From Acaryochloris thomasi RCC1774 (GTDB lineage: Bacteria > Cyanobacteriota > Cyanobacteriia > Thermosynechococcales > Thermosynechococcaceae): a DNA stretch of 32,000 nucleotides. A model generated the notes under the pieces. It did not search any database. It was not told the origin of the DNA and saw only the letters and a program-made list of their open reading frames with translations. Position numbers and translations under genes: made by a program. The stretch covers positions 30,001-62,000 of the forward strand of contig NZ_PQWO01000010.1 of NCBI RefSeq assembly GCF_003231495.1. Reading direction: 5' to 3'. How positions within the stretch are numbered: position 1 is the stretch's first letter; the number at the start of each line of letters is the position of its first letter. Shown piece by piece: positions 1 through 21,264 of this stretch.

Positions 1-1684
1 ATGGGGCAATAGAAAAATCATTGAGACAACGCTCAGTAGAAGCTCGATCTCGAAGAGTAATATGATTAGAAAGCCTAAAGATTTCAGAAACAACCTGCAT
101 ATAAATTGGTTGTGACAATGGTCCAAGACCACATCCTTCAATCCTGGCAATTGAATTATATTTTGCACTTTGGATAAAAGCATAAAGGATATGATTGAGA
201 GGCTCAATATCCATTAAAGGGCCGCCGCCAACAACCATCTCATCAACTTCTGCGCAAACGCTATCAAAGTTCTGAGTATAAGTTTCGACAATAGTAATTT
301 CACCAAGCTCCATTTCTTTTATTGTCCATTGAGATATAAATGGGAAGAGACTGGAGAGATAGATTGTCTTAGGAGGAATAGATCGAGTTCGGAGATTTCG
401 AACGATAGTCGATAATATAGCCTTATCGCCTACAGTTTCAGTTCCATACCAACCAAGAATTAATACTTTTTGAGAGTTTAAGTTAGAAAAATCATAACTA
501 AGGGATTCAATCTTAGAATATTTTATTGACTTGCTAATAAGAAGATCACATTTATATTTGTTTTTCCTAATACGAGAAAATATTTTCTCGTTCAATAATT
601 CATTTATAGTCAAAGACTCATGGTAGTCATGAATACAAGAGGAACAATCATTCTCGATAATCGCCTCCCTTGTTCTTAGATTCTGAAAATAGATATTTGA
701 TGCAGATTCGTTTAAAGAATTACCAAGGACTGGAGATTTAGGGGAGCAATATAGTAAATCGCCTGATGAGGCTAAAACTACGGCATTTGATTGATAAGGA
801 CATCCAATTTGTCTTGGCTTACCCTCCGTTAGCATTTTCCTTATATTCCTATATGTCTTTTTGTAAATTTCATCTGTTTCAAAAGCATGCTCTAGACGGA
901 AGAAAAAAAGACCTAGATGATAGGAAGTAACATCATCAAATGCTCTTATAAATTGAGATTGCTCAGCGTTATATAATCTATCTATAAATTCTGCTACTCT
1001 AAAACGTCCATATATTCCTTTTGATATCGCATAGTCGAGAAGTTCATCAACATATAGTGCATTTGAAGCTGAAATAGTACATCCAAAGGATGTATTTATT
1101 CCTGTTTCATTATGAAAAAAATCTAAGAGAGAAGTAGCAGTATTAAAATTGCCCTTACGACCTCGTACCACATCATGTATTTCACTGATGCCATCTAAAG
1201 ATATCATCAAGTTGAAATCAACATCATATGAATTACAAACTTCGGCACAGTCTAAAACTTTCTGTCTAACTGAATTTTCTATGATTCCATTAGTAATTAA
1301 TCCAGCACCTAAAATCTTTGGTTTCTTAGTACAAATTACTTCAAAAATCTCAGAAAGATCAGACCTCAGGGTCGGCTCACCACCACTCACACCAATGTAT
1401 TTTATATCACTAAATAATGGGTCTAGTAATACTATACTTAGTTCAGAAGGGCTGATCTCCTTGCTTTTTTTGTTTTTCCATATCAAGCACATCTGGCAGC
1501 GAGAATTACATGTATCATTGACCAATAGATTTACGACTGTTGGCTTAGGAGGTACTATCTTTCTTAGTTTTTTAAATCGGAGGTCCCTATAAGCAGACAT
1601 CACAAAGGGTTTAATCTTATTCAGTCTTTCCCTGTAAATCTTTGGGATTAAGCGTTTAGCATAGCTTTTGATATGATTTTTCAT
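1..1684 (-). CDS. Radical SAM protein (CX3CX2C plus twitch/SPASM-like Cys motif) fused to a polysaccharide pyruvyl transferase domain. The C-terminus lies beyond the left window edge.
   Basis: Absent from the supplied ORF track because there is no stop inside the window. I translated the minus strand from the ATG (reverse complement of cat at 1682-1684). The frame stays open for 561 codons down to position 2. Sequence: MKNHIKSYAKRL..VNLLVNDTCNSRCQMCLIW..YIGVSGGEPTLR..CPYQSNAVVLASSGDLLYC..CSSCIHD..KVLILGWYGTETVGDKAILSTIV..MVVGGGPLMD. I checked positions 481-661 triplet by triplet and found no stop at the domain junction. The + ORF at 1149..1592 is its antisense shadow. Confidence 0.8.
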   Translation of the reverse strand, partial: MKNHIKSYAKRLIPKIYRERLNKIKPFVMSAYRDLRFKKLRKIVPPKPTVVNLLVNDTCNSRCQMCLIWKNKKSKEISPSELSIVLLDPLFSDIKYIGVSGGEPTLRSDLSEIFEVICTKKPKILGAGLITNGIIENSVRQKVLDCAEVCNSYDVDFNLMISLDGISEIHDVVRGRKGNFNTATSLLDFFHNETGINTSFGCTISASNALYVDELLDYAISKGIYGRFRVAEFIDRLYNAEQSQFIRAFDDVTSYHLGLFFFRLEHAFETDEIYKKTYRNIRKMLTEGKPRQIGCPYQSNAVVLASSGDLLYCSPKSPVLGNSLNESASNIYFQNLRTREAIIENDCSSCIHDYHESLTINELLNEKIFSRIRKNKYKCDLLISKSIKYSKIESLSYDFSNLNSQKVLILGWYGTETVGDKAILSTIVRNLRTRSIPPKTIYLSSLFPFISQWTIKEMELGEITIVETYTQNFDSVCAEVDEMVVGGGPLMDIEPLNHILYAFIQSAKYNSIARIEGCGLGPLSQPIYMQVVSEIFRLSNHITLRDRASTERCLNDFSIAP

Positions 1685-1711
1685 CACTGACAATTATCTA
1701 TATATAGAGCA

Positions 1712-2488
1712 TTAGATGTAATTAAAATACTTTAGTAAAGTAGCAGCCTCTTCTAATATGAAATCTTCATCCTCACTGGAAAAGTGATTTTTCCAATCGC
1801 CACTTATCCCTTTTCTTACAAATATTGTTGATTTTTCTTCTGCATTTAAATCTTTAAACGGACGTCCTCTCTCGGCTTCAATTCTCTGCATTCTTTCGAA
1901 GGAAGAAGATTTTACAGCAGCCTTGATTTCCTCTTCGTTAAATCTATCTTTCCACAAAATACTTGCAAGCTTAGATACTTCTAAACAAGGATTTTTTAGT
2001 AAATCCTCATACCTAATTATTGAGATAATATTCGACGCATTAATCCATGAGTTGACGTGATCATGCCATCGACTCGGGAAAATATCTTGCTTTCTAATAA
2101 ATTTCGAGAATGTCATATCTAACATTAATTTTTTTCGTAAATAGTGATAATAGGAGACATATACATCTCTCGCGTCTCTCACAAGGTATATTACTTTAGG
2201 ATAGTTTTTGTTAAATAAATGATGACTTTTTATTATTCTTGGCCTTGATAAATTCTCAAGGATTTTACTATGCACACCAATCTCGGGAATGACTGAGATA
2301 GAGGTGTGAAAATCAATATCATCCTCTGTCTCAGTTATTAAATTTGCGATGATAAACCGAAGCCATGTATTCCCTGACTTTGGATAAGAGACTAGAAATG
2401 TATCATCAGGAAAAATTACTTCTTTAGCCCCCCCACCCCTAAATATTCGTGCCTTTACTTTTTTTGCAAACATAATTAAATTCTTCAA
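1712..2488 (-). CDS. PAPS-dependent sulfotransferase (Sulfotransfer_1-like)
   Basis: 258 aa. The 5'-PSB loop is YPKSGNTWLRF, the 3'-PB motif is RDARDVYVSYYH, and the C-terminal RKGISGDWKNHFS is typical of this family. It lies 27 nt upstream of the rSAM fusion gene and 3 nt downstream of wzt. Confidence 0.85.
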   Translation of the reverse strand: MKNLIMFAKKVKARIFRGGGAKEVIFPDDTFLVSYPKSGNTWLRFIIANLITETEDDIDFHTSISVIPEIGVHSKILENLSRPRIIKSHHLFNKNYPKVIYLVRDARDVYVSYYHYLRKKLMLDMTFSKFIRKQDIFPSRWHDHVNSWINASNIISIIRYEDLLKNPCLEVSKLASILWKDRFNEEEIKAAVKSSSFERMQRIEAERGRPFKDLNAEEKSTIFVRKGISGDWKNHFSSEDEDFILEEAATLLKYFNYI

Positions 2489-2491
2489 AAA

Positions 2492-3778
2492 TCATTTTTT
2501 GTTGTATGTTTTCCAGCTCGCCTGCGAACGAATTAGACCTTCATTCTTTCCTCTTGCATTATCATTTATGCTAATATCTGCAATCTCTAGATATAATACA
2601 CTGTCGATACTTATAAAATTTTTTACCCCTCTCATGCCAGCGTTGATTTTTAGTGAAAATTGTCCGGAATTCAGAAAATTTCCTGGAATTTTACATCGAC
2701 TTACATAACGTCCTGGGCATCGAGATGCACCTATCTCTTCGCCATAAACATCATAGGTATCAAATAGTTTGACCCCACTAAAAGTGTTGACAGTTACTCC
2801 AATCCTGTAAGAGGTAATATCCTTTAATAGATCGTACTCTATTTCAATATAAAAATCAGATCTTGGATCGATATGTGAAGTGATTTTCCCTTGATTGTTT
2901 ACAATGCGGATAGCTTTCAATAAAAATTCATTTACATTTAGATTGGCTATACCTTTTTTCCATATTTTTTCGCCTTTCTTAGTTGCATTAGAGCTTAAAT
3001 ATTGTGCAACAATATGCTCTGCATTATCGTTTGCACGGAGCGTTCCATTCTCAATCCAAAAGGCACTTTGACAAAGTTGAGTCACAGCTCCCATATTATG
3101 GCTGACGAACAAGACAGTTCGCCCCTTATTTGTGGCGATATCTTCCATTTTACCTAAACATTTATTTTGGAAAGCAATGTCTCCAACAGCTAAGACTTCA
3201 TCAACGACAAGAATTTCTGGTTCCAAATGTGCAGCGACAGCAAAGGCTAATCTGACATACATGCCACTCGAATATCGTTTTACTGGGGTATCTAAAAACT
3301 TTTCAACCTCAGCAAAATCAACGATCTCTTCAAATTTACGTTTAATTTCAAATCTGCTCATCCCCAAAATAGCACCATTCAGATAGATATTTTCTCTACC
3401 AGTCAGTTCTGGATGAAAGCCCGTACCCACTTCTAATAAACTAGCAACTCTCCCATTAATAAAGATCCGCCCAGTGGTCGGTTCAGTAATACGGCTAAGG
3501 ACCTTTAGAAGAGTCGATTTTCCAGCACCATTCCTGCCAATAATGCCAACGCGATCGCCTTGTTTAATCTCAAACGAGACATCGCTCAATGCCCAGAAAT
3601 CTTCTTTCGTAGGCCCCTCACCACTGTTGTTGCTCAGTGGATTAATATATCTTCCAACGGCTTTAGCCCTATCCGCCAATACATCCCGTAGGGCCTTGTA
3701 TTGCGATTGCTCTGCCTGCTTATAACCAATAATGTATTTCTTACCTAGATTCTCAGCCTTGATAACAGTCTCAGACAT
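2492..3778 (-). CDS. wzt: Polysaccharide/O-antigen ABC exporter ATP-binding subunit (Wzt/TagH/KpsT type) with a C-terminal extension of about 180 aa
   Basis: 428 aa. Walker A is GRNGAGKSTLLK, the ABC signature is YSSGMYVRLAFAVA, and Walker B is ILVVDEVLAVGD. Residues from about 250 to 428 form an extra non-NBD domain, comparable to the Wzt C-terminal glycan-binding domains. Confidence 0.85.
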   Translation of the reverse strand: MSETVIKAENLGKKYIIGYKQAEQSQYKALRDVLADRAKAVGRYINPLSNNSGEGPTKEDFWALSDVSFEIKQGDRVGIIGRNGAGKSTLLKVLSRITEPTTGRIFINGRVASLLEVGTGFHPELTGRENIYLNGAILGMSRFEIKRKFEEIVDFAEVEKFLDTPVKRYSSGMYVRLAFAVAAHLEPEILVVDEVLAVGDIAFQNKCLGKMEDIATNKGRTVLFVSHNMGAVTQLCQSAFWIENGTLRANDNAEHIVAQYLSSNATKKGEKIWKKGIANLNVNEFLLKAIRIVNNQGKITSHIDPRSDFYIEIEYDLLKDITSYRIGVTVNTFSGVKLFDTYDVYGEEIGASRCPGRYVSRCKIPGNFLNSGQFSLKINAGMRGVKNFISIDSVLYLEIADISINDNARGKNEGLIRSQASWKTYNKK

Positions 3779-3788
3779 AACTCACCTC

Positions 3789-4625
3789 TCAAATTACATC
3801 TGCAAATGTGCGTTCCATTCGGCGGAAATACCAGATACCACTCCCCAACAGAAACAGTACTAGCCCTAATGACAACGCAAAACCTAAACCATAGAGTTGT
3901 GTCTCGTGGCCTAAGATAGACCAACGAAAACCGTCGATAACCCCGACCATTGGGTTAAGAAAGTAGAGCAACCGCCATCTCTCGGGCACAATGCTACTGC
4001 TAAAACCAACTGGAGAGATATAGAGTCCAAACTGGACAACAAACGGCACGATGTATCGAAAATCTCGATACTGAACATTAAGTGCAGCCAACCACAATCC
4101 AACCCCCATCGCTGCAGCAAAGGCAATCATAATAAACAGCGGCAGTACTAAAATGCGCCAACTGGGTACAAAGTTATACCAGGCCATTAATCCCACCATA
4201 ATCATCCCCGAGATCAAAAAATCCACAAAGCTGACAATTACAGCGCTGGTGGGAATAATTAAGCGAGGGAAATATACCTTCGACAGCAAGTTAGAATTCG
4301 AGATCAGACTATTGCTGCATTCTGTCAGTGCATTTGCGAAAAACTGCCAAGGTAACATTGCGGCAAAAACTAGAATGGGATAAGGCACTCCCTCAGATGG
4401 GAGTTTAGCCAAATTACCAAAGACAACGGTAAACACCATCATTGTCAAGAATGGCCGAATTAAAGCCCAAGCAATACCAATTACTGTTTGTTTATAGCGC
4501 ACCAAAACATCACGCCATGCGAGGAAATAGAACAGCTCTCGATATCGCCATAAGTCTTGCCAGTACTGGCGTTCAGTACGTCCAGCTTCAATAATTAATT
4601 CTGGCGGATGTTGCTGTTTGCGCAT
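3789..4625 (-). CDS. wzm: ABC-2 type polysaccharide exporter permease (Wzm/TagG/KpsM type)
   Basis: 278 aa and polytopic. The N-terminal YRELFYFLAWRDVLVRYKQTVIGIAWALIRP is typical of ABC-2 permeases. It sits 10 nt upstream of wzt on the same strand. Confidence 0.85.
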   Translation of the reverse strand: MRKQQHPPELIIEAGRTERQYWQDLWRYRELFYFLAWRDVLVRYKQTVIGIAWALIRPFLTMMVFTVVFGNLAKLPSEGVPYPILVFAAMLPWQFFANALTECSNSLISNSNLLSKVYFPRLIIPTSAVIVSFVDFLISGMIMVGLMAWYNFVPSWRILVLPLFIMIAFAAAMGVGLWLAALNVQYRDFRYIVPFVVQFGLYISPVGFSSSIVPERWRLLYFLNPMVGVIDGFRWSILGHETQLYGLGFALSLGLVLFLLGSGIWYFRRMERTFADVI

Positions 4626-4935: not shown

Positions 4936-5760
4936 ATGAGTGATACAAAGCAAGATAACCACAGAAAGCATCATTTACTGGGTGTTCTATTAAATATCAC
5001 AAGTTATGAGGACGCTTGCGATCGCATCTCGAACTGGGCACTGACCAAACAATCCTGCTACATCATTGCAGCAAACGTTCACGTCGTAATGACGGCTTAC
5101 TGGAATTCCGCCTATCGACAAGTCGTGAATCACGCGGCAATGGTTACCCCCGATGGAATGCCCTTAGTTTTGGCACTGCGCTGGTTAGGCTGGCCTCAGG
5201 CCACCAGAGTCTATGGCCCAGATTTAATGCTGCACTGCTGTCAGCGGGCGGCTCAAGATAAACTACCCATCTATTTGTATGGCGGGACAAATGCCATGCT
5301 GAAAAAGCTACAGCAAAATCTTGTGCTGCGCTTTCCAGAATTAAAAATTGTAGGGGCATACTCCCCTCCCTTCCGAGACCTAACCTTAGAAGAAGAGCAG
5401 CAAAGTCTTGAGCAAATCCATCAAAGTGGTGCAGCTATTGTCTTTGTCGCCCTCGGCTGTCCCAAACAAGAGCTATGGATGGCAAGACAGCAGGGTCAAC
5501 TAGACGCCGTCATGATTGGTGTAGGCGCAGCCTTTGGTTTTCATAGCGGCGAAGTGAGTCAAGCTCCACGATGGATGATGGCACTCAGTTTAGAATGGCT
5601 ATATCGTTTAATGACTGAACCTAAGCGTCTCTGGAAACGCTATCTCATAAACAATCCAGCCTTCGTTTTGTTACTGAGTCGAGAACTTCTTCGGCATACC
5701 TTGAAGCAAGATCAAACTTCCGCAGTGTCCCAAGCCAATGATCGCGACATCGCTGGGTAG
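4936..5760 (+). CDS. WecG/TagA/CpsF family (GT26) glycosyltransferase, a probable ManNAc-type transferase
   Basis: 274 aa. Family hallmarks are MVTPDGMPLVLALRWLG, IYLYGG and FVALGCPKQELWM. It is transcribed divergently from wzm across a 310-bp gap. Confidence 0.8.
   Translation: MSDTKQDNHRKHHLLGVLLNITSYEDACDRISNWALTKQSCYIIAANVHVVMTAYWNSAYRQVVNHAAMVTPDGMPLVLALRWLGWPQATRVYGPDLMLHCCQRAAQDKLPIYLYGGTNAMLKKLQQNLVLRFPELKIVGAYSPPFRDLTLEEEQQSLEQIHQSGAAIVFVALGCPKQELWMARQQGQLDAVMIGVGAAFGFHSGEVSQAPRWMMALSLEWLYRLMTEPKRLWKRYLINNPAFVLLLSRELLRHTLKQDQTSAVSQANDRDIAG
5018..5025. repeat. HIP1 (GCGATCGC), one representative of 12 dispersed copies
   Basis: Copies I found by eye are at 3551, 5018, 6198, 6366, 6724, 7110, 8582, 19085, 19291, 22447, 25976 and 29903 (start coordinates). 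This octameric palindrome is highly over-represented in many cyanobacterial genomes. Confidence 0.85.
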
Positions 5761-5796: not shown

Positions 5797-7245
5797 TTGC
5801 TTGCTGTGCACCAACCCACCCCAAAAACACCGCTTCACGAGGATATTCGAGCGATTCGTTCAGCTAACCCTGGACGCAAAAGTTTACAGCAACGGCTAAA
5901 TATGGGCGTGCTCGTAGCTGTAGATTTAGCGGCTCTTGGCTGCGCTTGGAGAATTGCAGCACAACTCAATAAGCTTTACTCTCCTATTCCCTCTCAACTT
6001 GTATGGTGGAACTTCCTAGGGCTACCAAGCTTGTTTTGGGTCTTTTCTGGGATAACTCTAGTAATTTTGTTTAGTGGTGGACTTTACAGCCGCGCCATCG
6101 CCTGGAAAGACTATGTGCGCTCTGCCCAATTGGTCAGCCTCGCCTACCTGTTGGCTCTAGTCGTCAGTTACTTCTATGACCCAAAGCTGGATGCCCCGCG
6201 ATCGCTCTTTTTCAGTGCCTGGTTCCTGAGCGTTACTTTCATCATCGGGTTTAGACTCCTCTCCACCCTTTTGCTCCAGCAGCTTGAGCAGAGACAGCCC
6301 ACAGTAGCTCTATTCCTAATTGCTCCTGCTGAGCGCTTGCCGCGTCTCTCCAAATTGCTAGAGCAGCGATCGCACTACCACATTGTCGGTGCCGCCCTTG
6401 CCTCCACTGCCAGCGCGAACGCAACTCTCAATTCCATCCTCAGATCTAAAGCCCAGGAAGTCATCGTCGCAGAACTACCGCCAACGGAACTTGCCTCTAC
6501 CCTCTATTGGCAACTCCGGCGCTTAGGAATAACCCTCCGCCTGATACCATCCAGCGTAGAAGTGCTGCATCGTCGCGGTATCTCCGAAATTTTTGCCGGA
6601 ATGCCCACCCTGCGAGCCGCGCCGCCGATGCTTCTAGGGCTAGACTACCGGACTAAACGAGCTATTGATATGGTTGCTGCCGCCTGCGGGTTGTTGGTGC
6701 TGGCTCCTTTTTTAATTGGAGTTGCGATCGCAATTAAAACAACCTCTCCCGGCTCCGTTTTTTACCGGCAAGAGCGCGTCGGACTCCACGGCAAAGTCTT
6801 TCAGATGTGGAAATTTCGCACAATGGTAGCGAACGCTGCTATGCTTCAGGCCAAACTAGAAGCACAGAACGAATCACAGGACGGGATTCTATTCAAGATA
6901 AAAGATGACCCGCGCATGACTAAGATTGGTAGCTTTCTACGCCGGACCAGCATCGACGAACTGCCTCAACTTATTAATGTATTAGTCGGACAAATGAGTT
7001 TAGTGGGACCACGCCCATTACCCATTCGAGATGTTGAGCGTTTTAACTCATGGCATCATATTCGGCATCAGGTCGTTCCCGGCATAACTGGGCTGTGGCA
7101 AATCTCAGGGCGATCGCACATCGACGACTTTGACCAAGCCGCCCGCCTCGATCTCTACTACATCGACAACTGGACGCTGAATCTAGACTTTGAAATCCTG
7201 GTTGAAACCGTTCGGATTGTTCTGTTTGCCAGTGGTGCCTATTAG
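5797..7245 (+). CDS. Polyprenyl-phosphate glycosylphosphotransferase (WbaP-like, Bac_transf domain), the initiating enzyme for Und-P-linked glycans
   Basis: 482 aa with N-terminal TM helices. The C-terminal domain reads KRAIDMVAAACGLLVLAPF..SPGSVFYRQERVGLHGKVFQMWKFRTM..DELPQLINVLVGQMSLVGPRP. The track start is TTG at 5797. An in-frame ATG at 5902 is an alternative start. Confidence 0.85.
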   Translation: MLAVHQPTPKTPLHEDIRAIRSANPGRKSLQQRLNMGVLVAVDLAALGCAWRIAAQLNKLYSPIPSQLVWWNFLGLPSLFWVFSGITLVILFSGGLYSRAIAWKDYVRSAQLVSLAYLLALVVSYFYDPKLDAPRSLFFSAWFLSVTFIIGFRLLSTLLLQQLEQRQPTVALFLIAPAERLPRLSKLLEQRSHYHIVGAALASTASANATLNSILRSKAQEVIVAELPPTELASTLYWQLRRLGITLRLIPSSVEVLHRRGISEIFAGMPTLRAAPPMLLGLDYRTKRAIDMVAAACGLLVLAPFLIGVAIAIKTTSPGSVFYRQERVGLHGKVFQMWKFRTMVANAAMLQAKLEAQNESQDGILFKIKDDPRMTKIGSFLRRTSIDELPQLINVLVGQMSLVGPRPLPIRDVERFNSWHHIRHQVVPGITGLWQISGRSHIDDFDQAARLDLYYIDNWTLNLDFEILVETVRIVLFASGAY

Positions 7246-7252: not shown

Positions 7253-9781
7253 CTAGCTTTCAGAAGCCTGTATAGATCGCCATAAGCTTTCGCAGAAAGG
7301 CTGTAGAGCGATATCTAATGCTGGACTATAAGCAAGAGAGGGGAAAAGCTCAGCCAAAAACTGAGACACCGCAGCATTCTCGACCACTGGGAAAAAGTCA
7401 GACGGAGCAGGACCATCAATGTGGCGACTGAGAACCCCAAAACCAGCACGAACGCGCGGATATTGTTGTAAGGGAGCATTTTTCTTAACCCACTGTTCGA
7501 AAGAATCAGAGCGCTCCATACCTGCCTGAAGAGCCTGAACATCCTGCGGTTTCGGTAGAGCTTGATTGGCCTGCAGTAGCGCTCTTTCAAGCCACTGGAT
7601 CCGTTGTTGAGGCTCTAACCAAGCCTTGAGGATAGGGATATTAGTAGAGATAGCCTCACCTCTAGAGATCGATAAAACAGCCTTTCCAAGGGGGGGGGCA
7701 CTTTTTTCCCATTGAGCTGCCGCAGCGGAGAGATTGCCCTGCCACCAATACACGCCACCTAAACATTGATGCAAGTAGGCCGTTAAAGAATCTTGGGCGG
7801 AGTGAGTCTTTAGCAGTTGTTGATAGAGCTGCACCACCTCTTCTTGTACTTGAGGGTAAAACGTTGCTGTCGGCGGCGATTGCAGCAAGGGACTGGTGAG
7901 AAAGAGAGGATCTCTGAGAATTTCAAGAGCAATGGCCTGCACCCCTAAATCTGCTTTGCCCTGTAACAGCAGACTTTGCCCCAAACTATAGAATCCCCCG
8001 CGTTTGGCAGGCATAAGCTGCGTAGATTTAAGAAAAGATTCAGTTGATTGGGACGGCTGGCGATTCAAGAGCTGTTGCCAACCCAGACTACTGGTCCCTG
8101 ACTCTTGAGAAGGAGACACCTGAACGTGACGCTCGAAAAACTCCAGGCTTTGCCTAGCTCTAACTTGATTAATCTGAGCGTCATCACTACGGACACTGCC
8201 CAAGTTCCAGCCCAACTGATAGGAGTAGTAAGGCTCCCAAGGAGCAAGCTGATGGGCCTGCTCTAGATCCGTAGTAAAGGATTCAAATTGCTCTTCTGCT
8301 AAAGCCGCAAAACCTCGACTAGAAAGCTGCCACGCTCGATGAATAGGCGCGAGCCATATCCCTACAGCCAACAATAGTCCCACTAGTCCCCAGCATAAAA
8401 TCTTGATACGCTTCGTGCTGTGCACCTCAGAAGATAACGGTAAATATTGGCGCAGAAGCGATAGCAGACCGACTAGGTAAAGAATCAGGGTGCCGCTGAT
8501 GCAAACAATATCGAGCTGATAATCAGTCAAGGCAACGATGCCATACCCGCCTAGCCCCGCAAGCAGACTCCAGGACATAATGCGATCGCCCTCTAATTCT
8601 ACGGGCTGTGCTTGCCACAGCCTTACCCCCCAATACACCAACCAGCCAATCATAAAGATGCATAGAGCAATCCCCAGCGCACCCAACTCAGCCCAAACCT
8701 GGGCAGGCGTCCCGTGGAGTTGATACACCAGTTCAGCTTCTCGGCCAGCCCAAGCCGGTCGATAGGACTGGTAAAGTAACGGAACACTGCCGGGTCCGGC
8801 ACCCAAGAGTGGGTGAGCCAGCCCCATTGCCCATCCCGTTGCGTTCGTAATCAAACGAAATGCAACGGTGCTCCCCGCACTATCCCGAGAGAAAGCACTC
8901 ACTAGCAGCGCACGCAGCCGATTGTTCGCCAGTACCGTACCGAAAAGACCAATCAATAGGCCCAGCCCCATCAGCCAACGGAAGCGTGGCGATAGGCGCT
9001 TCAGTAGTACTACTCCAGAGACGGCTACTAGAGCCATGCCCAACCACCCTCCACGGGAACTAGTGGTATAAAGATCCACAAGCCCTAAAAGCGCACCCAG
9101 GCCCCATACCCATTTCCATTTCGATGAGGCCCGTAGGCAAAGCCCTATAAGCAGCGGCAAGGTCAAAACTAGAAAACCCGCCACATAATTTTGGTGTCCA
9201 ATGGGTGCCCAGTTGCGCAGCTCCAATACTGAAAAATCAAAGGAGCGCTCCAGTCCCGAAGCTCGTAAGTCAGCCAAACGGTTCATTTCTGGTAGCAGGG
9301 TTTGAAAGAACCAGAGGCTAAGACTCACCGCAATAAATGCCAAACTCAAGCCACCTTGGGCAGCGAGGAGCTTCTGTCTTCGTGACGGACTAGAACACCA
9401 AGTGTTGAGAGCATAGAGGGCGGCTATTGCACATAATGCAGCCCAACTATGCCAACGAGCCTGCTGCGGGAATTGAGCCAAGAGCGTTGACCCCAATACC
9501 CCCAAAACGGTGAGCGCTGTTCCATAATCAAGGCCATAGCCCAATCGGGTGAGCTGAAACTGCATCCACCACGTTCTGAGCAGCCACAGCCAGGGCAGAA
9601 ATAAGCCAACCTGCCAAAGCAAGACCCAGGGCCAAGCCACCACTAAACTACTGCTGTCGGGCAATAGCGTAAATAGAGCATAAAAGCCAAATGCGAGGGG
9701 GCCAAACAGATCTCTAGAAGAAGATGGCTGGACAGATGTCTTTAGAGACGCAGTTCCATTAGACTCCATTGCAGCTCCCAA
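7253..9781 (-). CDS. O-antigen ligase / Wzy_C family polytopic membrane protein with a C-terminal soluble helical-repeat (TPR-like) domain of about 360 aa
   Basis: 842 aa with many TM segments through about residue 480. The motif YTTSSRGGWLGMALVAV is typical of the Wzy_C/O-antigen ligase loop. The track start is TTG at 9781, but the ATG at 9769 (MESNG..) is the more likely start. The gene converges on the phosphoglycosyl transferase gene with a 7-nt gap. Confidence 0.75.
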   Translation of the reverse strand: MGAAMESNGTASLKTSVQPSSSRDLFGPLAFGFYALFTLLPDSSSLVVAWPWVLLWQVGLFLPWLWLLRTWWMQFQLTRLGYGLDYGTALTVLGVLGSTLLAQFPQQARWHSWAALCAIAALYALNTWCSSPSRRQKLLAAQGGLSLAFIAVSLSLWFFQTLLPEMNRLADLRASGLERSFDFSVLELRNWAPIGHQNYVAGFLVLTLPLLIGLCLRASSKWKWVWGLGALLGLVDLYTTSSRGGWLGMALVAVSGVVLLKRLSPRFRWLMGLGLLIGLFGTVLANNRLRALLVSAFSRDSAGSTVAFRLITNATGWAMGLAHPLLGAGPGSVPLLYQSYRPAWAGREAELVYQLHGTPAQVWAELGALGIALCIFMIGWLVYWGVRLWQAQPVELEGDRIMSWSLLAGLGGYGIVALTDYQLDIVCISGTLILYLVGLLSLLRQYLPLSSEVHSTKRIKILCWGLVGLLLAVGIWLAPIHRAWQLSSRGFAALAEEQFESFTTDLEQAHQLAPWEPYYSYQLGWNLGSVRSDDAQINQVRARQSLEFFERHVQVSPSQESGTSSLGWQQLLNRQPSQSTESFLKSTQLMPAKRGGFYSLGQSLLLQGKADLGVQAIALEILRDPLFLTSPLLQSPPTATFYPQVQEEVVQLYQQLLKTHSAQDSLTAYLHQCLGGVYWWQGNLSAAAAQWEKSAPPLGKAVLSISRGEAISTNIPILKAWLEPQQRIQWLERALLQANQALPKPQDVQALQAGMERSDSFEQWVKKNAPLQQYPRVRAGFGVLSRHIDGPAPSDFFPVVENAAVSQFLAELFPSLAYSPALDIALQPFCESLWRSIQASES
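7690..7698. repeat. G9 (coding-strand C9) homopolymer inside the O-antigen-ligase-family CDS
   Basis: The sequence reads ccaagggggggggcactttttt. On the coding strand this is AGT GCC CCC CCC CTT (..SAPPL.., around residue 695 of 842). Confidence 0.9.
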
Positions 9782-10611: not shown

Positions 10612-11124
10612 ATGAAATCTACATTCACTGCTAAGTACCTCCAGCACCTAACTAGCAAGAAGAAGAACAACGAAGGATTCACGCTAATTGAGCTTTTGGT
10701 TGTGATCATCATCGTCGGCGTTTTGGCTGCCATTGCTCTACCTAGCTTCTTAAATCAGATTGGTAAAGCTCGGGGTTCTGAAGCTAAATCTACTCTAGGC
10801 ACAATCAACCGTTCTCAGCAGGCTTATCGTTTAGAAAATAATACTTTTGCAACCGCGACTGGTACTCTAGACGCTAGAATCACCGAAAAATTCTATAATG
10901 TTGGCGTCACTGCAGCGGGTGTCAATACTACCTTTGCAGCTCATACAGCAGCAGCAGTCAATGGTGATCTCAAGTCCTATGGTTCTGCAGTTTCTCAAGC
11001 TGCAGATGGTACATCTTTTTCACAGATTGTTTGTGAGACAGAGGCAAACACTCAAACTGCACCAGCGGTTACATCTACAGCTGCGGGCCATTGTGCTACT
11101 CTCAACAGCAAGTCTGTTGAGTAA
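10612..11124 (+). CDS. pilA: Type IV pilin (PilA-like) with a prepilin N-terminal cleavage/methylation domain
   Basis: 170 aa. The leader MKSTFTAKYLQHLTSKKKNNEG is followed by FTLIELLVVIIIVGVLAAIALP, giving G-1, F+1 and E+5. Two C-terminal Cys residues (CETEANTQTAPAVTSTAAGHC) form a D-region-type loop. Confidence 0.9.
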   Translation: MKSTFTAKYLQHLTSKKKNNEGFTLIELLVVIIIVGVLAAIALPSFLNQIGKARGSEAKSTLGTINRSQQAYRLENNTFATATGTLDARITEKFYNVGVTAAGVNTTFAAHTAAAVNGDLKSYGSAVSQAADGTSFSQIVCETEANTQTAPAVTSTAAGHCATLNSKSVE

Positions 11125-11173
11125 GTAACTTTCACAGATTGGTGAAGGCTACAGCTGCTCAACCATAAGAACA

Positions 11174-11199
11174 TCAGGTAGGTGGAAACATCTACCTGA
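11174..11199 (+). terminator. Hairpin 50 nt after the first pilin stop codon, a candidate intrinsic terminator
   Basis: The arms tcaggtaggt and atctacctga enclose the loop ggaaac. This gives a 10-bp stem with one G-U pair and a 6-nt loop. No clear U-tract follows (caccaataaaatc), so confidence is moderate. Confidence 0.45.
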
Positions 11200-11925
11200 C
11201 ACCAATAAAATCTTCTATAAGATATCGGAAATATTCTAGACCAGAAGTATAAACGCAGGTCATACCTTGGCAGTTTAAGATATGAGTGACACATATTTAA
11301 ATCTTTAACACTACAGTAGTACATATCACACATTCCGAATATTTTCAGACCATAAAGTTTGGATTATATGAAGAACCTACAGAAGGCAAATCCTACTGTT
11401 GCAGCAGTGAAGTGCAAATTGCAAGTCTCACTTCAAGCCCAAACCTAGGTAATCGATGCTTCCATTGGCTTTCAGAGAGTCAATTTACAAATATGAAAAC
11501 AAACTGAGCAGTCAATTGCATTTCAGAGGCTTGCTCTCGACAAAAACATATAAGCCAGCTAATACCTATAGCTAGTTGCTCTCGTTGACGAGACAATCAA
11601 AATTTCAAAGACTTTACTTTACTAGAACTTCAAAGTTCTAGCAATATTATCAGTGCAGTGCACCTTAGCACAATAGTCCGGACACTTTTTTAGTGCCTGG
11701 ATGACCATTCCTCTAGGGTTACGGAGTACCAATGATCATTAAATCAAAGTCAGGTCTGAACCTGAGTTGCATTTAATTCGATGTTTCCTACACTCCATAT
11801 ACTGAAAGCCTTATGGCTACGTTCTGAAAACTGTCCGGAGTATTGTCAGCAAACATTGCACATAAAACATTAATCCTCAAATATCAAAACGCTACAGCTT
11901 CGGTATTTTATTGCAATTTATCTAA

Positions 11926-12417
11926 TTGAAAACAATGTTAATGCTCAATCTATTATATCGGAATAAAGGCTTTACACTGATTGAGTTACTAGTAGCAATT
12001 GTTATTATTGGCGCATTGGGAGCAATAGCTTTACCCAGCTACTTAAATCAAGCTTCTAAGGCTAAAGGATCTGAAGCAAAATCGCATCTAGGAAATATCA
12101 AGACAGCGCAAGCAGCCTATCGGCTAGAGACTAACGCTTTTGCAACGAGCTTAGGCGATTTAGATGTAAGAGTTACCGGTAAATTTTACACCTATTCAGT
12201 TGAAGGCACTCCTACTTCTCTATATGCAGAGCATCGAGCAGTTCCTGGAGCAGGGAATAATGACTTAAGGCGCTATGCTTCTGCAGTATCTCAGCCCAAT
12301 GAGTCAGTATTGACATCAGTTATTTGTCAAAGCGACAGCTCTCTTGGTAGTGGTGGAACCGTGAACGTAGTCGATACAACGCTTGCCTGCGATACTGGAA
12401 GCAGTAAAATTGACTGA
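11926..12417 (+). CDS. Type IV pilin paralog (PilA-like)
   Basis: 163 aa. The sequence ..LLYRNKG FTLIELLVAIVIIGALGAIALPSYLNQASKAKGSEAKS.. aligns closely with the first pilin through about residue 75 of the mature protein and again at Y.SAVSQ and the C..C loop. The track start is TTG at 11926. In-frame ATGs at 11935 and 11941 are alternatives. Confidence 0.85.
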   Translation: MKTMLMLNLLYRNKGFTLIELLVAIVIIGALGAIALPSYLNQASKAKGSEAKSHLGNIKTAQAAYRLETNAFATSLGDLDVRVTGKFYTYSVEGTPTSLYAEHRAVPGAGNNDLRRYASAVSQPNESVLTSVICQSDSSLGSGGTVNVVDTTLACDTGSSKID

Positions 12418-12438
12418 TAAATAGATTTCGATTAGCTT

Positions 12439-14622
12439 ATGGATAATACTTATTCAAGCGATCAAGCGAAAAACTTAGTCCAAGCAGCAAAGTCTTCTTT
12501 CTCTGAAGGCAGGTATTCTGAAGCCGCTCAACTCTATGACCAGTTAGTTTCGCTACAACCTAAGATCAGCACACATTACTGGTACTTGGGTTTATCACTG
12601 CTGCTGATAGAGCAGGAGTCTGAAGCTCAGGCGACATGGCTCGAAGGGGTAGTAGAGTTTACAGAAGACGGCACACTTTCTCTTTTAAGCATTCTAAAAT
12701 TTGAAGTAGAAAGGCTCGAGACAGCCTTCAATATGCAATCAGCATGGTTGGTTCGAAAATACATCCAAGAGATTGACCCTGATGATTTAGAGAACCTCTT
12801 GATAGCTCTTGATCATTCTGCCAACTTAGGATTTCTTGCAGAGTCTGACGAACTAATCTATCAAGTTATAGATTTAATTGGCCAGCATGAACATTTCGAT
12901 AGCGATGCGTTGCCAAAAGTAGTAAGCAGCCTACTCATAAATTCCCCTCATTCTACTGCTGCTGTTGATTTTATAGAGATCTGTATAGAGAAATACACAA
13001 ACTCACAAAAATTAGCCAGTATTCTTTTCTCGATCATTAATGATATTCAGCAAAATCACTCTATTCGCAGAGAAAACGTTATTAGGCTAGTTCATTTATG
13101 TCTAGACTTCTCACCTCAAAACTCATCTGTCTTAATTAACCTAATCTCTCTCTATCAAGAGATAGGTCAATACAATAGAAGCATTGAGTATGGGAAACAA
13201 CTTGTTGAGGTCTCTAGAACTAAATTTGATAGGATCTCGGCAATCTATCTCCTTGTAAAAGGATTTCTTTTGTCTGGCGGCAAGTGGCTAGAAGCAGAAA
13301 GTTCCTATCGAGAGTGCCATCATCTAATTCAAAGTTTTCTGAGCGAATCTCCCAGTCTTGACTTAGATAAATCAATGCGCCTGCTCGTGATTACAGGAGT
13401 AAGTCCCTACTTCTCAGATAATCCAGCAGCACATAACATCATTCGAAAGCAAATAATTCAGTCTTCTTGCACGAATTTTTCTAGGCAATCGATAGATACG
13501 GAGAAGCGGCATCAATCTAACAGGCCTCTGCGAATAGGATATATATCATCTTGTTTCCGCAGGCACTCTGTTGCATGGTTGTCTCGGTGGATTTTTCAGT
13601 ATCATAATTCCGATAAGTTTCACATATATGCTTATTCGCTTAAGCGTACAGATGATGATTTACAGAACTTTATTGCCAATCAGGTACAGAATTTTGTTCA
13701 TGTCTCCCCTGACGCAAAACCTACAGAAATAGCAAAGCATATCCAGCAAGATGAAATTGATATTTTGGTGGATTTAGATAGTATTACTTCTAAGAAAATC
13801 TGTTCTGTCATGATGTTGAAGCCTGCGCCTATCCAAGTTACTTGGTTGGGATCAGATGCATCTGGTGTACCAGTAATTGATTATTTCATGGCGGATCAAT
13901 ATGTTTTGCCTGATACTGCTCACGATTATTACACCTCAAAAATCTGGCGTTTACCTAAGACATACGTCGCGGTTGATGGCTTTGAAGCTAGCACACCCAC
14001 GTTACGTCGTTGTCATTTAAGTATTCCCAACGACGCTGTTGTCTTTTTTAGCTCTCAGACAGGATATAAGCGACACCAAAAAACAGTTCACTTGCAGATG
14101 AAGATCCTGCGCGAAGTTCCTGGTAGTTTTTTCCTGGTGAGAGGATTATCTGATGGAGATTCTGTCCAAGCCTTTTTTGCAGATATAGCTGAGCAGGAAG
14201 GTGTAAGTTTCGACCGTTTTCGTTTTTTGCCAACTTTCCCTTCAGAAGAAATTCATCGAGCCAATTTACAAATTGCCGATGTCGTTCTAGATACCTATCC
14301 ATACAATGGTGCAACTACAACTTTAGAAACGTTATGGATGGGTATTCCTTTAGTTACTCGCGTAGGTGAGCAGTTCGCAGCCCGTAATAGCTATGCCTTC
14401 ATGATGAACGTAGGTGTTGCTGAAGGCATAGCTTGGACTGACGAAGAATATATAGAATGGGGCATCCGCCTGGGCACAGATGAAGCACTGCGCAAGAAAG
14501 TTGCTTGGCAGCTCAAGCAATCGAGACACACCTCACCCCTTTGGGATGCCAAGAAATTTACTTGCGAGATGGAAAACGCCTACTGCCAGATGTGGGCCAA
14601 GTACACCGAACAAGTCAGCTAA
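12439..14622 (+). CDS. TPR-containing GT41 family glycosyltransferase (O-linked GlcNAc transferase / SPINDLY-like)
   Basis: 727 aa. The N-terminus has TPR-like helices (GRYSEAAQLYDQLVSLQP..). The C-terminal GT41 blocks are LRIGYISSCFRRHSVAWL, KPAPIQVTWLGSDASGVPVIDYFMAD, FFSSQTGYKRHQK, and DTYPYNGATTTLETLWMGIPLVTRVGEQFAARNS. It starts 21 nt after the second pilin stop. Confidence 0.85.
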   Translation: MDNTYSSDQAKNLVQAAKSSFSEGRYSEAAQLYDQLVSLQPKISTHYWYLGLSLLLIEQESEAQATWLEGVVEFTEDGTLSLLSILKFEVERLETAFNMQSAWLVRKYIQEIDPDDLENLLIALDHSANLGFLAESDELIYQVIDLIGQHEHFDSDALPKVVSSLLINSPHSTAAVDFIEICIEKYTNSQKLASILFSIINDIQQNHSIRRENVIRLVHLCLDFSPQNSSVLINLISLYQEIGQYNRSIEYGKQLVEVSRTKFDRISAIYLLVKGFLLSGGKWLEAESSYRECHHLIQSFLSESPSLDLDKSMRLLVITGVSPYFSDNPAAHNIIRKQIIQSSCTNFSRQSIDTEKRHQSNRPLRIGYISSCFRRHSVAWLSRWIFQYHNSDKFHIYAYSLKRTDDDLQNFIANQVQNFVHVSPDAKPTEIAKHIQQDEIDILVDLDSITSKKICSVMMLKPAPIQVTWLGSDASGVPVIDYFMADQYVLPDTAHDYYTSKIWRLPKTYVAVDGFEASTPTLRRCHLSIPNDAVVFFSSQTGYKRHQKTVHLQMKILREVPGSFFLVRGLSDGDSVQAFFADIAEQEGVSFDRFRFLPTFPSEEIHRANLQIADVVLDTYPYNGATTTLETLWMGIPLVTRVGEQFAARNSYAFMMNVGVAEGIAWTDEEYIEWGIRLGTDEALRKKVAWQLKQSRHTSPLWDAKKFTCEMENAYCQMWAKYTEQVS

Positions 14623-16244: not shown

Positions 16245-16333
16245 GCTCTAACTCAAATTAGGGACAGAATCGATCTTAATATCCCCAATTTCGGGCGATC
16301 TGCACACACCCTTCTGAAATCTGTGACAGCAGA

Positions 16334-17323: not shown

Positions 17324-17480
17324 TAGCTCCCCTGTTCAGATCACTTCACATCTCTCTCGAGGAACCTTACCAGTCGTTTAAGTTTCTTCATATTTAGAGG
17401 TATTGTATTAATATCCGTGGCAACAAATAGCTATCGGTTTATCCCTGAATATGCTGTGAGGAACTGGGGGAAACAGGGAA

Positions 17481-18554: not shown

Positions 18555-18667
18555 AACTTAATCTCGACATCATCAGATCGAGTCACTTTCTCAATTTGAA
18601 TGGTCTACACTACAGATTGCAATAACCCAACGGGCTTCATTTAGACTTGGAGAGAGGATCGAGCAAT

Positions 18668-18811
18668 ATGTCTTCAGATTTTGACCGTGGCATCATGAAG
18701 TTTGAGGGTGCCGATAAACCTGTCACGATCGCTCTGTCTGCGGTGATCGTATTAGGTTCTATTGCTGTTTTGATTGGATGGGCACTGCGCTCTGCCTATA
18801 TCTTTAGCTAG
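18668..18811 (+). CDS. Unannotated small ORF encoding a predicted 47-aa single-pass membrane protein
   Basis: My own reading gives MSSDFDRGIMKFEGADKPVTIALSAVIVLGSIAVLIGWALRSAYIFS*. A GGAGAG-type purine-rich stretch lies about 10 nt upstream of the ATG. There is one 22-residue hydrophobic helix. It falls below the size cut-off of the supplied track. Its 3' end overlaps the 3' end of the convergent comF by 8 nt. Confidence 0.4.
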   Translation: MSSDFDRGIMKFEGADKPVTIALSAVIVLGSIAVLIGWALRSAYIFS

Positions 18812-19505: not shown

Positions 19506-19564
19506 TTGATAGAGAGATTGTGCAGAATACTGACAAAATACTCAAGACAGGCGCACCCGCGCTC

Positions 19565-19951: not shown

Positions 19952-20169
19952 GCCATTTTCTCCGTGGGTGCTCTTGAGGCCCTCTTGCTAGCACCTGTTA
20001 CACCTGTCTTCTTCTATTGTCAGCGGGATTTTCTATGCCGGATACCGAAGAACCCCCATAATAATTAGGGAGTTATACCCAAACTTGAGAAAACCCCTTA
20101 AGAACTGGCTGAGATCCTCTCTCTGACTAAGTATTTTAGCCTAACGCCATTCTTCTTCATCGCGATTTT

Positions 20170-21261: not shown

Positions 21262-21264
21262 TTC

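Follow-up and report, generated by a model that had tools for sequence, protein, structure and literature searches.

A radical SAM-pyruvyl transferase fusion protein in Wzm/Wzt surface-glycan loci of diverse bacteria

At the left edge of a 32,000-nucleotide stretch of Acaryochloris thomasi RCC1774 DNA (the window), one open reading frame appears to join a radical SAM (rSAM) domain with a twitch-like cluster region to a polysaccharide pyruvyl transferase (PT) domain. Given this unusual pairing, we questioned whether the frame encodes a genuine two-domain enzyme, in which pathway such an enzyme would act, and what it may add to a glycan.

Domain architecture of the fusion protein

The frame runs on the minus strand from an ATG at position 1684 to the left window edge, giving 561 open codons (Table 1). 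An open frame of this length has a chance of about 3e-19 under the local base composition, and it was absent from the ORF listing of the window because it runs past the window end. The full-length protein (763 aa; P0001, A. thomasi RCC1774) is 100% identical over the part within the window, and the last 202 residues, which lie beyond the left edge, were taken from this identical database protein rather than by extending the contig, as the first-pass annotation had proposed.

Table 1. Coordinates of the fusion gene, its domains and its neighbours in the window
Feature	Position	Strand	Evidence
rSAM/twitch-pyruvyl transferase fusion, first 561/763 codons	2..1684	-	open frame, P0001 identity, Pfam + NCBIfam
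N-terminal Rossmann half of CsaB-like pyruvyl transferase domain, residues 405-561	2..472	-	NCBIfam CsaB, PF04230, invariant residues
Helical linker, residues 356-404	473..619	-	AF2 helices 360-386; split point of two-gene version in L081
Twitch-type auxiliary cluster domain, residues 295-355	620..802	-	invariant Cys, AF2, weak SPASM match
Radical SAM core, residues 48-240	965..1543	-	PF04055 at residues 56-193, AF2 secondary structure, invariant columns
GGEP SAM-binding motif, residues 101-104	1373..1384	-	translation; invariant in 75/75 relatives
CX3CX2C motif CNSRCQMC, residues 59-66 (C59, C63, C66)	1487..1510	-	translation; invariant in 75/75 relatives
Basic N-terminal helical segment, residues 1-47	1544..1684	-	composition 16 K/R vs 2 D/E; AF2 helices 2-12, 15-42
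Sulfotransferase (Sulfotransfer_1), 27 nt upstream of the fusion gene	1712..2488	-	Pfam 4.6e-38
Wzt, ABC-transporter ATPase + C-terminal Wzt_C carbohydrate-binding domain	2492..3778	-	ABC_tran 8.1e-23, Wzt_C 9.9e-8, above cut-off
Wzm, ABC-2 permease	3789..4625	-	Pfam ABC2_membrane 1.4e-17
WecG/TagA-family glycosyltransferase, divergent from wzm	4936..5760	+	Pfam 1e-62
Bac_transf initiating phosphoglycosyl transferase	5797..7245	+	Pfam 2.6e-66
842-aa membrane protein, Wzy_C / O-antigen-ligase domain	7253..9781	-	Pfam 4.9e-15

Pfam Radical_SAM (PF04055) matched the N-terminal half both in the 561-aa fragment (4.8e-11, 43.6 bits vs a cut-off of 29.5) and in the full-length protein (7.7e-11). In the AF2 model, six beta strands of a partial TIM barrel alternate with helices over residues 50-230, and the core ends in the conserved segment FRVAEFIDRLYN, in which 9 of 12 positions are invariant. 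Judged by their motif, C59, C63 and C66 are the predicted ligands of the SAM-binding [4Fe-4S] cluster. Further along, CPYQSNAVVLASSGDLLYC (residues 295-313) has the pattern CX12GX4C (C295-X12-G308-X4-C313), with a beta hairpin modelled between its two Cys (strands 301-304 and 309-311), and is followed by CSSC at residues 347-350 (C347-X2-C350). All four of these Cys were invariant in 75 of 75 relatives, and H352 was likewise invariant within the family. Pfam SPASM matched weakly over residues 295-350 of the fragment (0.076, 13.8 bits vs a cut-off of 21.5), and the full seven-Cys SPASM motif (CX2CX5CX3C) was not found, there being no CX5CX3C continuation after C350. The four conserved Cys after the core, in the absence of that continuation, therefore indicate a twitch-like protein with one auxiliary cluster and not a full SPASM protein.

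The fusion has in common with twitch/SPASM enzymes (anSME, BtrN, BlsE and MoaA, of the kind with sugar or small-molecule substrates, and SkfB and SuiB, which act on peptides) the CX3CX2C and GGEP motifs, the partial TIM barrel, and a Cys-bracketed beta hairpin plus CX2C. Foldseek returned SkfB, SuiB, BlsE, viperin, anSME and MoaA for the rSAM half, with rSAM structures at E values of 1e-7 to 1e-9, and all NCBIfam models scored far under their cut-offs on this half. These structural neighbours are too generic for a reaction to be assigned. BlsE, the second-best PDB sequence match (6e-8) and the one with the best TM-score among twitch-type matches (0.67), is a sugar-acid decarboxylase. The presumed substrate of the fusion is a polymer-linked sugar, for which we know of no characterised precedent.

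In the C-terminal half, KVLILGWYGTETVGDKAI begins at residue 405, and the domain contains GWYGTETxGDKAI (with D420 invariant) and GGGPLM (GGGPLMD being residues 486-492). Pfam PS_pyruv_trans (PF04230) stayed under its cut-off on the fragment (0.0016, 18.9 bits vs 25.3) because the window edge cuts the domain; on the full-length protein it rose to 8.7e-15 and 55.8 bits, and scores in relatives reach 4e-34. NCBIfam CsaB behaved similarly, matching the fragment at 1.9e-8 and aligning end to end with the C-terminal half of the full protein at 5.4e-20. Residues D420, R598, DDR652-654, R703, H705 and K727 were invariant in all 75 relatives. Foldseek matched this half to GT-B UDP-GlcNAc 2-epimerases and to the pyruvyltransferase Pvg1p (5ax7), while searching the PDB with the PT-half sequence yielded nothing above noise and no alignment to 5ax7. 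The catalytic residues proposed for Pvg1p are one Asp and two Arg, D106 on the acceptor side and R217/R337 on the PEP side (PMC4872226). By analogy of pattern rather than by alignment, D420, R598 and R703 would correspond to this trio, and we infer that the PT half is a CsaB-like, PEP-dependent pyruvyl transferase with a GT-B fold and PEP as donor. The domain match and the GT-B fold are common to the fusion and CsaB/Pvg1p/WbbZ-type transferases (PF04230), and the invariant Asp plus two Arg may be as well; those transferases lack the rSAM domain that the fusion has. Identity with CsaB itself was rejected, given 71.9 bits against the equivalog cut-off of 213.1 (TIGR03609) and the rarity of a WecG/TagA partner described below; the score is also well under the WcaK equivalog threshold.

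Both domains folded confidently in the AF2 model as one compact body (pLDDT 89.4, pTM 0.90), and catalytic residues of both were invariant among 75 full-length relatives from many phyla. The basic N-terminal segment may be a membrane-surface or partner-binding element, as its modelled helices and composition suggest. Much of what the first-pass annotation had read from the letters therefore holds: a single ORF, open for at least 561 codons, that fuses an rSAM/twitch domain with CX3CX2C and GGEP motifs and a CX9-15GX4C signature followed by CSSC to a CsaB/WcaK/EpsO-type PT domain. Among the models and the structure prediction that it had named as checks, Radical_SAM and PS_pyruv_trans each exceeded their cut-offs on the full-length protein and both domains folded; the SPASM model did not reach its threshold. 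Its analogy to BtrN-type dehydrogenases lost ground, as BtrN was absent from the PDB sequence matches and from the top 50 Foldseek matches, and what the two proteins share is limited to the general twitch architecture.

Gene neighbourhood and distribution

The family is large: we counted more than 1,100 homologues, and 225 clusters when those with E<=1e-30 were grouped at 50% identity. Matches were present in the genomes of at least 192 species from about nine phyla, including cyanobacteria, marine Bacteroidota, Planctomycetota, Verrucomicrobiota, Acidobacteriota and Chloroflexota. The fusion is thus no rarity. The first-pass annotation had allowed for a common family with an already assigned function, and only the commonness was found: public annotation gives the family both domain names with no function, and no curated family model names the fusion. 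In the full-text literature we found no paper on a protein with rSAM and pyruvyl transferase domains or on rSAM proteins in wzm/wzt loci, in keeping with the earlier statement that no characterised enzyme joins the two; the terminator survey of Mann et al. 2019 (Glycobiology) may list the architecture. What is new here is the gene context, in which the fusion is set in wzm-wzt-[tailoring]-fusion-GT4 loci across phyla.

Across 78 loci, wzm and wzt came first, followed in some cases by a gene for a sulfo-, methyl- or acetyl-transferase, and then by the fusion gene, a GT4 glycosyltransferase gene, and GT2 genes. Where more than 5 kb of upstream sequence was present, wzt was found in 48 of 59 loci and was absent from the other 11. 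Of 80 related loci, 13 had a sulfotransferase homologue, in many cases placed between wzt and the fusion gene, and the window sulfotransferase fills this variable tailoring slot. WecG/TagA was found in one and Bac_transf in two of the same 80, and WecG/TagA is therefore not a general partner of the fusion. In three loci (L012, L072 and L077), the fusion is the sole non-glycosyltransferase enzyme of the operon.

In 53 of the 78 loci the GT4 gene lay directly 3' of the fusion gene, and the two frequently overlapped by 4 bp; for the window's own copy, a downstream GT4 is expected from relatives only. These adjoining GT4s make up a separate orthologous group (reciprocal best hits in 60 of 62 cases), and the pairwise divergences of GT4 and fusion are correlated (r = 0.71). 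Both proteins are conserved at 38-65% identity across phyla, while other glycosyltransferases and sugar-nucleotide genes vary. Fusion of the rSAM and PT domains is not obligatory: in the same context, locus L081 carries them as a gene pair with an ATGA overlap, straight after wzm-wzt. Longer forms include rSAM-PT-GT4 triple fusions and a 3,783-aa assembly-line relative (rSAM-PT-GT4-TPR-MeT-GT2-GT2-GT4); TPR arrays, in place of a coiled coil, are present in some of the giant relatives. Fusion, split and co-evolution together link the rSAM-PT protein to GT4. It is very probably a genuine two-domain enzyme of an ABC-transporter-dependent (Wzm/Wzt) surface-glycan pathway.

The proposed end cap and its alternatives

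The conserved wzm-wzt-fusion-GT4 setting suggests that the fusion acts at the end of an ABC-transporter-exported glycan. Our working model, in which the position on the chain and the order of reactions are presumed, is that the fusion and its GT4 partner make the non-reducing end cap, a tentative reading that we place just short of evenly balanced. The fusion would act as a unit with the GT4 encoded just downstream: GT4 would add a dedicated last sugar, which the fusion would turn into a non-sugar-like cap, and adjoining sulfo-, methyl- or acetyl-transferases may decorate this cap further. Polymerisation would end with the cap, which Wzt_C would recognise before export, and the fusion would then be a functional counterpart of WbdD in E. 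coli O9a.

Few marks of a finished ABC-exported glycan are known, namely methyl, phosphomethyl and Kdo groups, with pyruvate only suspected. Wzt proteins with a carbohydrate-binding module (CBM) export capped chains only, and the terminator is a dedicated enzyme (PMC11231755). The position of the fusion gene parallels that of wbdD by analogy: like the WbdD-type terminators (E. coli O9a; Klebsiella O3/O5/O7/O12/O4), it is typically encoded straight after wzm-wzt, beside a Wzt with a C-terminal carbohydrate-binding domain. WbdD combines a kinase and a methyltransferase, and the fusion is likewise predicted to be a tailoring enzyme with two activities; WbbB and ORF6-O7 are fused to glycosyltransferase modules, as are some relatives of the fusion. 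However, these terminators have no sequence or fold relationship to the fusion, and they draw on ATP, SAM-methyl or CMP-Kdo, whereas the fusion is predicted to use PEP and radical SAM chemistry. A coiled-coil molecular ruler is said to mark known terminators (PMC11231755), and no long coiled coil was found in the AF2 model of the fusion (longest helices 15-42 and 610-635, with another at 360-386). For pyruvate as a stop signal the precedent is WbbZ, whose terminal pyruvate ketal caps the ABC-exported O antigen of Klebsiella O1b and halts polymerisation in vitro; pyruvate-based termination has been proposed for other bacteria without validation (PMC10629545). The Wzt that partners WbbZ has no CBM, and WbbZ itself is not required for export (PMC11231755), whereas most Wzt proteins adjoining the fusion have Wzt_C.

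This domain was present in 54 of 65 such Wzt proteins and was not detected in 11. Median identity between the Wzt_C domains was 15%, against 60% for the ATPase domain, and immediate adjacency of wzt and the fusion gene did not go with greater similarity. Since they are not conserved, the Wzt_C domains give no sign of a single shared cap ligand. Identity was 29.8% between loci with the same tailoring gene vs 17.8%, a hint on which we do not rely, as the 13 pairs are non-independent.

If the fusion instead modifies an internal residue of every repeat unit, by side-group pyruvylation and radical tailoring, GT4 would be part of the polymerase. Pyruvylation is internal to the repeat unit in most known systems, and most characterised PF04230 enzymes (WcaK, GumL, EpsO, and CsaB of Paenibacillus alvei) act on repeat-unit residues, which counts for this alternative, as do the missing coiled-coil ruler and the lack of a shared signature in the neighbouring Wzt_C domains. 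We nevertheless regard it as unlikely, though to be taken seriously, because a backbone-independent position explains more easily why the fusion and GT4 are conserved while the other locus genes vary, and because L012, L072 and L077, three loci with CBM-type Wzt, hold no other candidate cap-making enzyme. A position at the reducing end would be backbone-independent too. There the fusion would modify a primer or adaptor, as CsaB does with TagA on lipid-linked ManNAc-GlcNAc, for example in a pyruvylated SLH-protein anchor. This fits the closeness of CsaB to the PT half, and both the window and L012 have a WecG/TagA-family glycosyltransferase and a Bac_transf initiating transferase nearby. However, we down-weight this model to an improbable one because WecG is almost never linked to the fusion in other loci; in addition, the CsaB score falls far short of the equivalog cut-off, and where Wzt is of the CBM type the cap would still have to come from another enzyme, which several of these loci lack.

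The two remaining alternatives concern the protein itself. NCBI names it 'sporulation killing factor maturation protein SkfB', by which the rSAM half would be a peptide (RiPP) maturase and the PT fusion incidental, and SkfB is indeed the best PDB sequence match (3e-7 by single sequence, 5.5e-17 by profile) and the best Foldseek match. Yet that match is confined to the generic rSAM core (residues 46-225), the skfB model TIGR04403 gives only 28.8 bits where its cut-off is 300, the conserved neighbours, none of precursor-peptide size among ORFs of at least 90 aa, are glycan genes, and this rSAM subfamily occurs almost only fused to, or adjoining, a PT domain. The identity of P0001 as an SkfB sactipeptide maturase was rejected on the score, the core-only match and the glycan-gene neighbours, and a peptide substrate seems very improbable. 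The true two-gene version in L081 might raise the suspicion that the single frame results from faulty assembly or sequencing, or that two adjacent genes have fused and are decaying. But the same single-ORF architecture (about 720-800 aa) recurs across 78 independent loci and among more than 100 listed protein clusters of varied origin, the catalytic residues of both halves are all invariant, and the model forms a single compact body; we give this explanation next to no weight.

Proposed chemistry and implications

In the end-cap model, the PT half would take phosphoenolpyruvate and place a pyruvate-derived group (an enol ether, then a ketal) on a sugar hydroxyl. The rSAM half would split SAM to a 5'-deoxyadenosyl radical and take hydrogen from the same glycan terminus, with the auxiliary cluster, fully ligated by its four Cys, serving as a putative electron conduit. 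That one sugar undergoes two coupled modification steps, as the first-pass annotation suggested, is plausible and, as far as the predicted domains go, fits the data. For the radical step we can only guess: sugar C-H oxidation or epimerisation would be our first choice and radical chemistry on the PEP-derived enol ether our second, and any one specific reaction, taken singly, is unlikely.

A more speculative and rather improbable proposal joins the two reactions into one, for which no polysaccharide precedent is known. Here the PT half would install the enol ether or ketal on the last sugar and the rSAM half would use that product as radical acceptor or substrate, building in situ a bicyclic, higher-carbon, ulosonic-acid-like cap that Wzt reads as a stop-and-export signal. 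This may proceed through a PolH-like C-C bond between a sugar carbon and the enolpyruvyl group, or the ketal may undergo radical decarboxylation or rearrangement. In PolH catalysis, H-5' is abstracted and the resulting radical attacks the double bond of the enolpyruvyl group (PMC5365060). In the NikO/PolA systems, a sugar hydroxyl first receives an enolpyruvyl group from PEP, and the radical SAM enzyme PolH (NikJ) then forms octosyl acid by C-C cyclisation. The likeness is a chemical analogy only, limited to the pairing of a PEP-derived enol ether with a subsequent radical SAM step: NikO/PolA and PolH are not fused and have a nucleotide as substrate, their transferase resembles MurA and does not belong to PF04230, and PolH has one cluster, with CX3CX2C at residue 225, whereas the fusion has CX3CX2C at residues 59-66 and additional auxiliary-cluster Cys.

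To our knowledge, radical SAM chemistry on polysaccharides is almost unexplored. GT4, PT and rSAM, being naturally both fused and split, offer enzymologists a clean three-gene test system. If the joined reaction proves true, the fusion would found a new class of glycan chain terminators, and no radical SAM enzyme before it would have been shown to work on a bacterial polysaccharide during its growth. Even if it tailors repeat units only, its product is likely an undescribed sugar derivative. If it does make a cap, the family would embody a new and widespread termination chemistry, with a new sugar modification predicted on many environmental cell surfaces, which would matter for recognition by phages and grazers, for cyanobacterial sheaths and for the turnover of marine polysaccharides.

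Domain content of the fusion protein

The first-pass annotation had proposed that a single ORF at the left edge of the window joins a radical SAM (rSAM) domain to a polysaccharide pyruvyl transferase (PT) domain. Pfam and NCBIfam searches support both halves, the PT half over the full-length protein. The ORF was absent from the ORF listing because its frame runs off the window end; with a stop expected roughly every 14 codons at the local base composition, the chance of a 561-codon open frame is about 3e-19. A database protein from Acaryochloris thomasi RCC1774 (P0001, 763 aa) is 100% identical to the window fragment and adds 202 C-terminal residues. On the fragment, Radical_SAM (Pfam) passes its threshold (4.8e-11) and the CsaB model (NCBIfam) matches at 1.9e-8, while PS_pyruv_trans (Pfam) remains below threshold (18.9 vs 25.3 bits) because the window edge halves the domain. 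On P0001 PS_pyruv_trans reaches 55.8 bits (8.7e-15), and the isolated C-terminal half spans the whole CsaB model at 5.4e-20, well under the CsaB equivalog cut-off. Translation of the minus strand recovered every motif quoted in the first-pass annotation at its position.

Positions of the fusion protein, its motifs and other features of the window
Feature	Window position or protein residues	Strand	Basis or form
rSAM-PT fusion, N-terminal 561 codons	ATG at 1684 to left window edge	minus	open reading frame
CNSRCQMC	residues 59-66	minus	translation
GGEP	residues 101-104	minus	translation
CPYQSNAVVLASSGDLLYC	residues 295-313	minus	C-X12-G-X4-C
CSSC	residues 347-350	minus	translation
KVLILGWYGTETVGDKAI	from residue 405	minus	translation
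GGGPLMD	residues 486-492	minus	translation
sulfotransferase	1712-2488	minus	domain search
wzt with Wzt_C carbohydrate-binding domain	2492-3778	minus	domain search
wzm	3789-4625	minus	domain search
Wzy_C / O-antigen ligase protein	7253-9781	minus	
type IV pilin-like gene	10612-11124	plus	N_methyl + Pilin_GH
type IV pilin-like gene	11926-12417	plus	N_methyl + Pilin_GH
GT41-family glycosyltransferase	12439-14622	plus	
FkbM-domain protein	14658-16244	minus	
DUF2887 + DUF4351 protein	16334-17323	minus	
DUF1400 + alpha/beta-hydrolase	25293-26975	minus	
DUF1400 + alpha/beta-hydrolase	27026-28783	minus	

Residue conservation was assessed in an alignment of 28 diverse relatives and then in one of 75 full-length relatives from fetched genomes. 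Invariant residues comprised C59/C63/C66, GGEP, C295, C313, C347, C350, H352, R229, R236 and R291 in the rSAM half, and D420, R598, DDR652-654, R703, H705, D721 and K727 in the PT half, where GGG486-488 was also invariant save for one G486A exception. This invariance across 75 full-length relatives contradicts the reading of the single ORF as an artefact, which we regard as effectively excluded. Since the auxiliary cysteines number four and the CX5CX3C continuation is absent from the protein, the extension is twitch-like, with one predicted, fully Cys-ligated auxiliary cluster, rather than a full SPASM domain.

AlphaFold2 modelling from the alignment was confident (mean pLDDT 89.4, pTM 0.90), and the pTM indicates that the two halves would pack in a defined way. 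Foldseek comparison with the PDB placed the N-terminal half near SkfB, SuiB, BlsE, viperins, anSME and MoaA, and the C-terminal half near GT-B UDP-GlcNAc 2-epimerases and the yeast pyruvyltransferase Pvg1p. When PDB sequences were searched by profile, the matches included SkfB (5.5e-17), the sugar-acid decarboxylase BlsE (6e-8) and MoaA; BtrN, the analogy drawn in the first-pass annotation, appeared neither there nor among the top 50 Foldseek matches, so that the analogy has no specific support. For Pvg1p, a catalytic mechanism relying on one Asp and two Arg has been proposed (PMC4872226); D420, R598 and R703, all invariant, fit this pattern and may be the counterparts of those residues.

A broad family under generic names

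The domains belong to known superfamilies and the architecture is already in databases, so the protein is not categorically new; to our knowledge, the two chemistries are not known to be joined. The fusion is widespread: the family is large, phylogenetically broad and strongly conserved. No source searched assigns it a function. One search gave 1,106 homologues; among the 120 listed, 119 contain both Pfam domains and nearly all measure about 690-900 aa. Relatives occurred in 192 species (one genome scanned per species), across cyanobacteria, Planctomycetota, Verrucomicrobiota, Acidobacteriota, Chloroflexota, Bacteroidota, several Pseudomonadota classes, Desulfobacterota and a Paenibacillus. 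With the rSAM half alone as query, an exhaustive HMMER search found 225 clusters (50% identity) at E<=1e-30, and most of the 150 listed were 700-800 aa, the fused length; this rSAM subfamily therefore seems to occur essentially only together with a PT.

Database labels for relatives are generic: 'polysaccharide pyruvyl transferase family protein', 'radical SAM protein', or the two COG names together. None of the NCBIfam models claims the family, and full-text literature searches found no publication on it. P0001 itself is labelled 'Sporulation killing factor maturation protein SkfB' (NCBI, UniRef), a best-hit misannotation that we reject because the protein reaches 28.8 bits with the SkfB model, whose cut-off is 300, and because polysaccharide-synthesis genes surround it. 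The same evidence effectively excludes a RiPP maturase.

Conserved gene order around the fusion

The gene context is the main new result. We compared 80 related loci with 10-kb flanks, in which ORFs were called and then clustered, and found an order recurring across phyla: wzm, wzt, zero to three variable genes, the fusion gene, a GT4 and then GT2s. Wzt was present in 48 of the 59 loci having >5 kb upstream, and Wzt_C was detectable in 54 of 65 nearby Wzt proteins. The slot after wzt varies by lineage (by Pfam, hexapeptide acyltransferase, sulfotransferase, class I methyltransferases or PhyH-type dioxygenase), and one 315-aa family there (cluster 8) had no Pfam or NCBIfam match. The fusion is tied to one GT4 by synteny, co-evolution and fusion. 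This GT4 lies immediately downstream in 53/78 loci, typically with a 4-bp overlap; the adjacent GT4s are mutually best matches in 60/62 cases, and their divergence follows that of the fusion (r = 0.71). In L012, L072 and L077 the fusion is the sole non-glycosyltransferase enzyme of the operon.

In some relatives (P0129, P0202, P0237) rSAM, PT and GT4 form a triple fusion, the GT4 part being an orthologue of the adjacent GT4, and P0179 (3,783 aa) carries rSAM-PT-GT4-TPR-methyltransferase-GT2-GT2-GT4-TPR in one chain. Giant multi-module proteins also include P0193 and P0203; these proteins resemble glycan assembly lines built as one polypeptide, in which TPR arrays occupy the place that coiled coils take in known terminators. 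A metagenomic contig (L081, 6001-8222) holds a split form directly after wzm-wzt, in which the rSAM gene (381 aa) and the PT gene (359 aa) overlap by ATGA; this form would suit separate expression of the two activities.

In the window, a minus-strand run of wzm, wzt and sulfotransferase ends with the fusion as the last visible gene. The divergently transcribed genes encode a GT of the WecG/TagA family, an initiating transferase (Bac_transf) and a Wzy_C/ligase-like protein; WecG homologues (1/80 related loci) and Bac_transf (2/80) are not general partners. The Wzy_C protein is unusually long (842 aa), its sole assigned domain covering residues 229-373 and its C-terminal ~470 residues having none. 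G+C is 37% in the wzm-to-fusion block (1-4625; 34% in the first 3 kb) and 52% in the housekeeping part (16245-32000), a contrast typical of horizontally exchanged surface-glycan loci. The two pilin-like genes and the 727-aa GT41 directly after them (10612-14622), also low in G+C (0.38-0.43), may form a pilin glycosylation unit. The FkbM methyltransferase domain occupies only residues 330-489 of a 528-aa protein whose N-terminal 330 aa had no Pfam match. The DUF2887 + DUF4351 protein lies between the glycan-related block and housekeeping genes (queA, truB), and the DUF1400 proteins are tandem paralogues (PAF-AH, chlorophyllase or PETase-like).

A possible role at the chain terminus

We are confident that the fusion is a true two-activity enzyme working in a Wzm/Wzt glycan pathway. 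In ABC-transporter-dependent O-antigen synthesis, a CBM-bearing Wzt exports only chains with a specific non-reducing terminal group, installed by a dedicated terminator such as WbdD (kinase + methyltransferase) or the Kdo transferases in WbbB and ORF7-O4 (PMC11231755). WbbZ makes a terminal pyruvate ketal that caps Klebsiella O1b and stopped polymerisation in vitro; in other bacteria, termination by pyruvate has been suggested, without validation (PMC10629545). The fusion occupies the gene position of wbdD in E. coli O9a, and this position, the CBM-type Wzt, conservation despite variable backbone genes and the tie to GT4 together make a capping module the most likely role, albeit one we propose tentatively. 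Against it, the AlphaFold2 model has no coiled-coil ruler, which is typical of known terminators, and in some loci Wzt_C is missing or no Wzt lies within reach. The Wzt_C domains beside the fusion are also highly divergent (median 15% identity, vs 60% for the ATPase part) and no more similar where wzt abuts the fusion, and thus give no sign of a shared ligand. Variable tailoring could account for the divergence, but the one statistic in its favour comes from 13 non-independent pairs. Modification of internal repeat-unit residues is a serious rival to capping, and modification of the reducing-end primer a lesser one.

The analysis establishes domain content, conservation and genetic linkage, whereas the chemistry is a guess. 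In anSME- and BtrN-type dehydrogenases an auxiliary cluster of this kind, fully ligated by Cys, accepts an electron, and for this reason our first guess would be that a sugar C-H is oxidised or epimerised. Also attractive chemically is the possibility that the radical partner is the enol ether derived from PEP, as in the PolH reaction, in which 3'-enolpyruvyl-UMP is cyclised and octosyl acid phosphate results (PMC5365060). Any particular radical reaction is unlikely to prove the right one.

The setting of the fusion yields a specific, testable prediction. Under the capping model, the GT4 would put the last sugar on the chain, the PT half would pyruvylate that sugar with PEP as source, and the rSAM half would perform a radical step at the same terminus, to which neighbouring sulfo-, methyl- or acetyl-transferases may contribute lineage-specific decoration.
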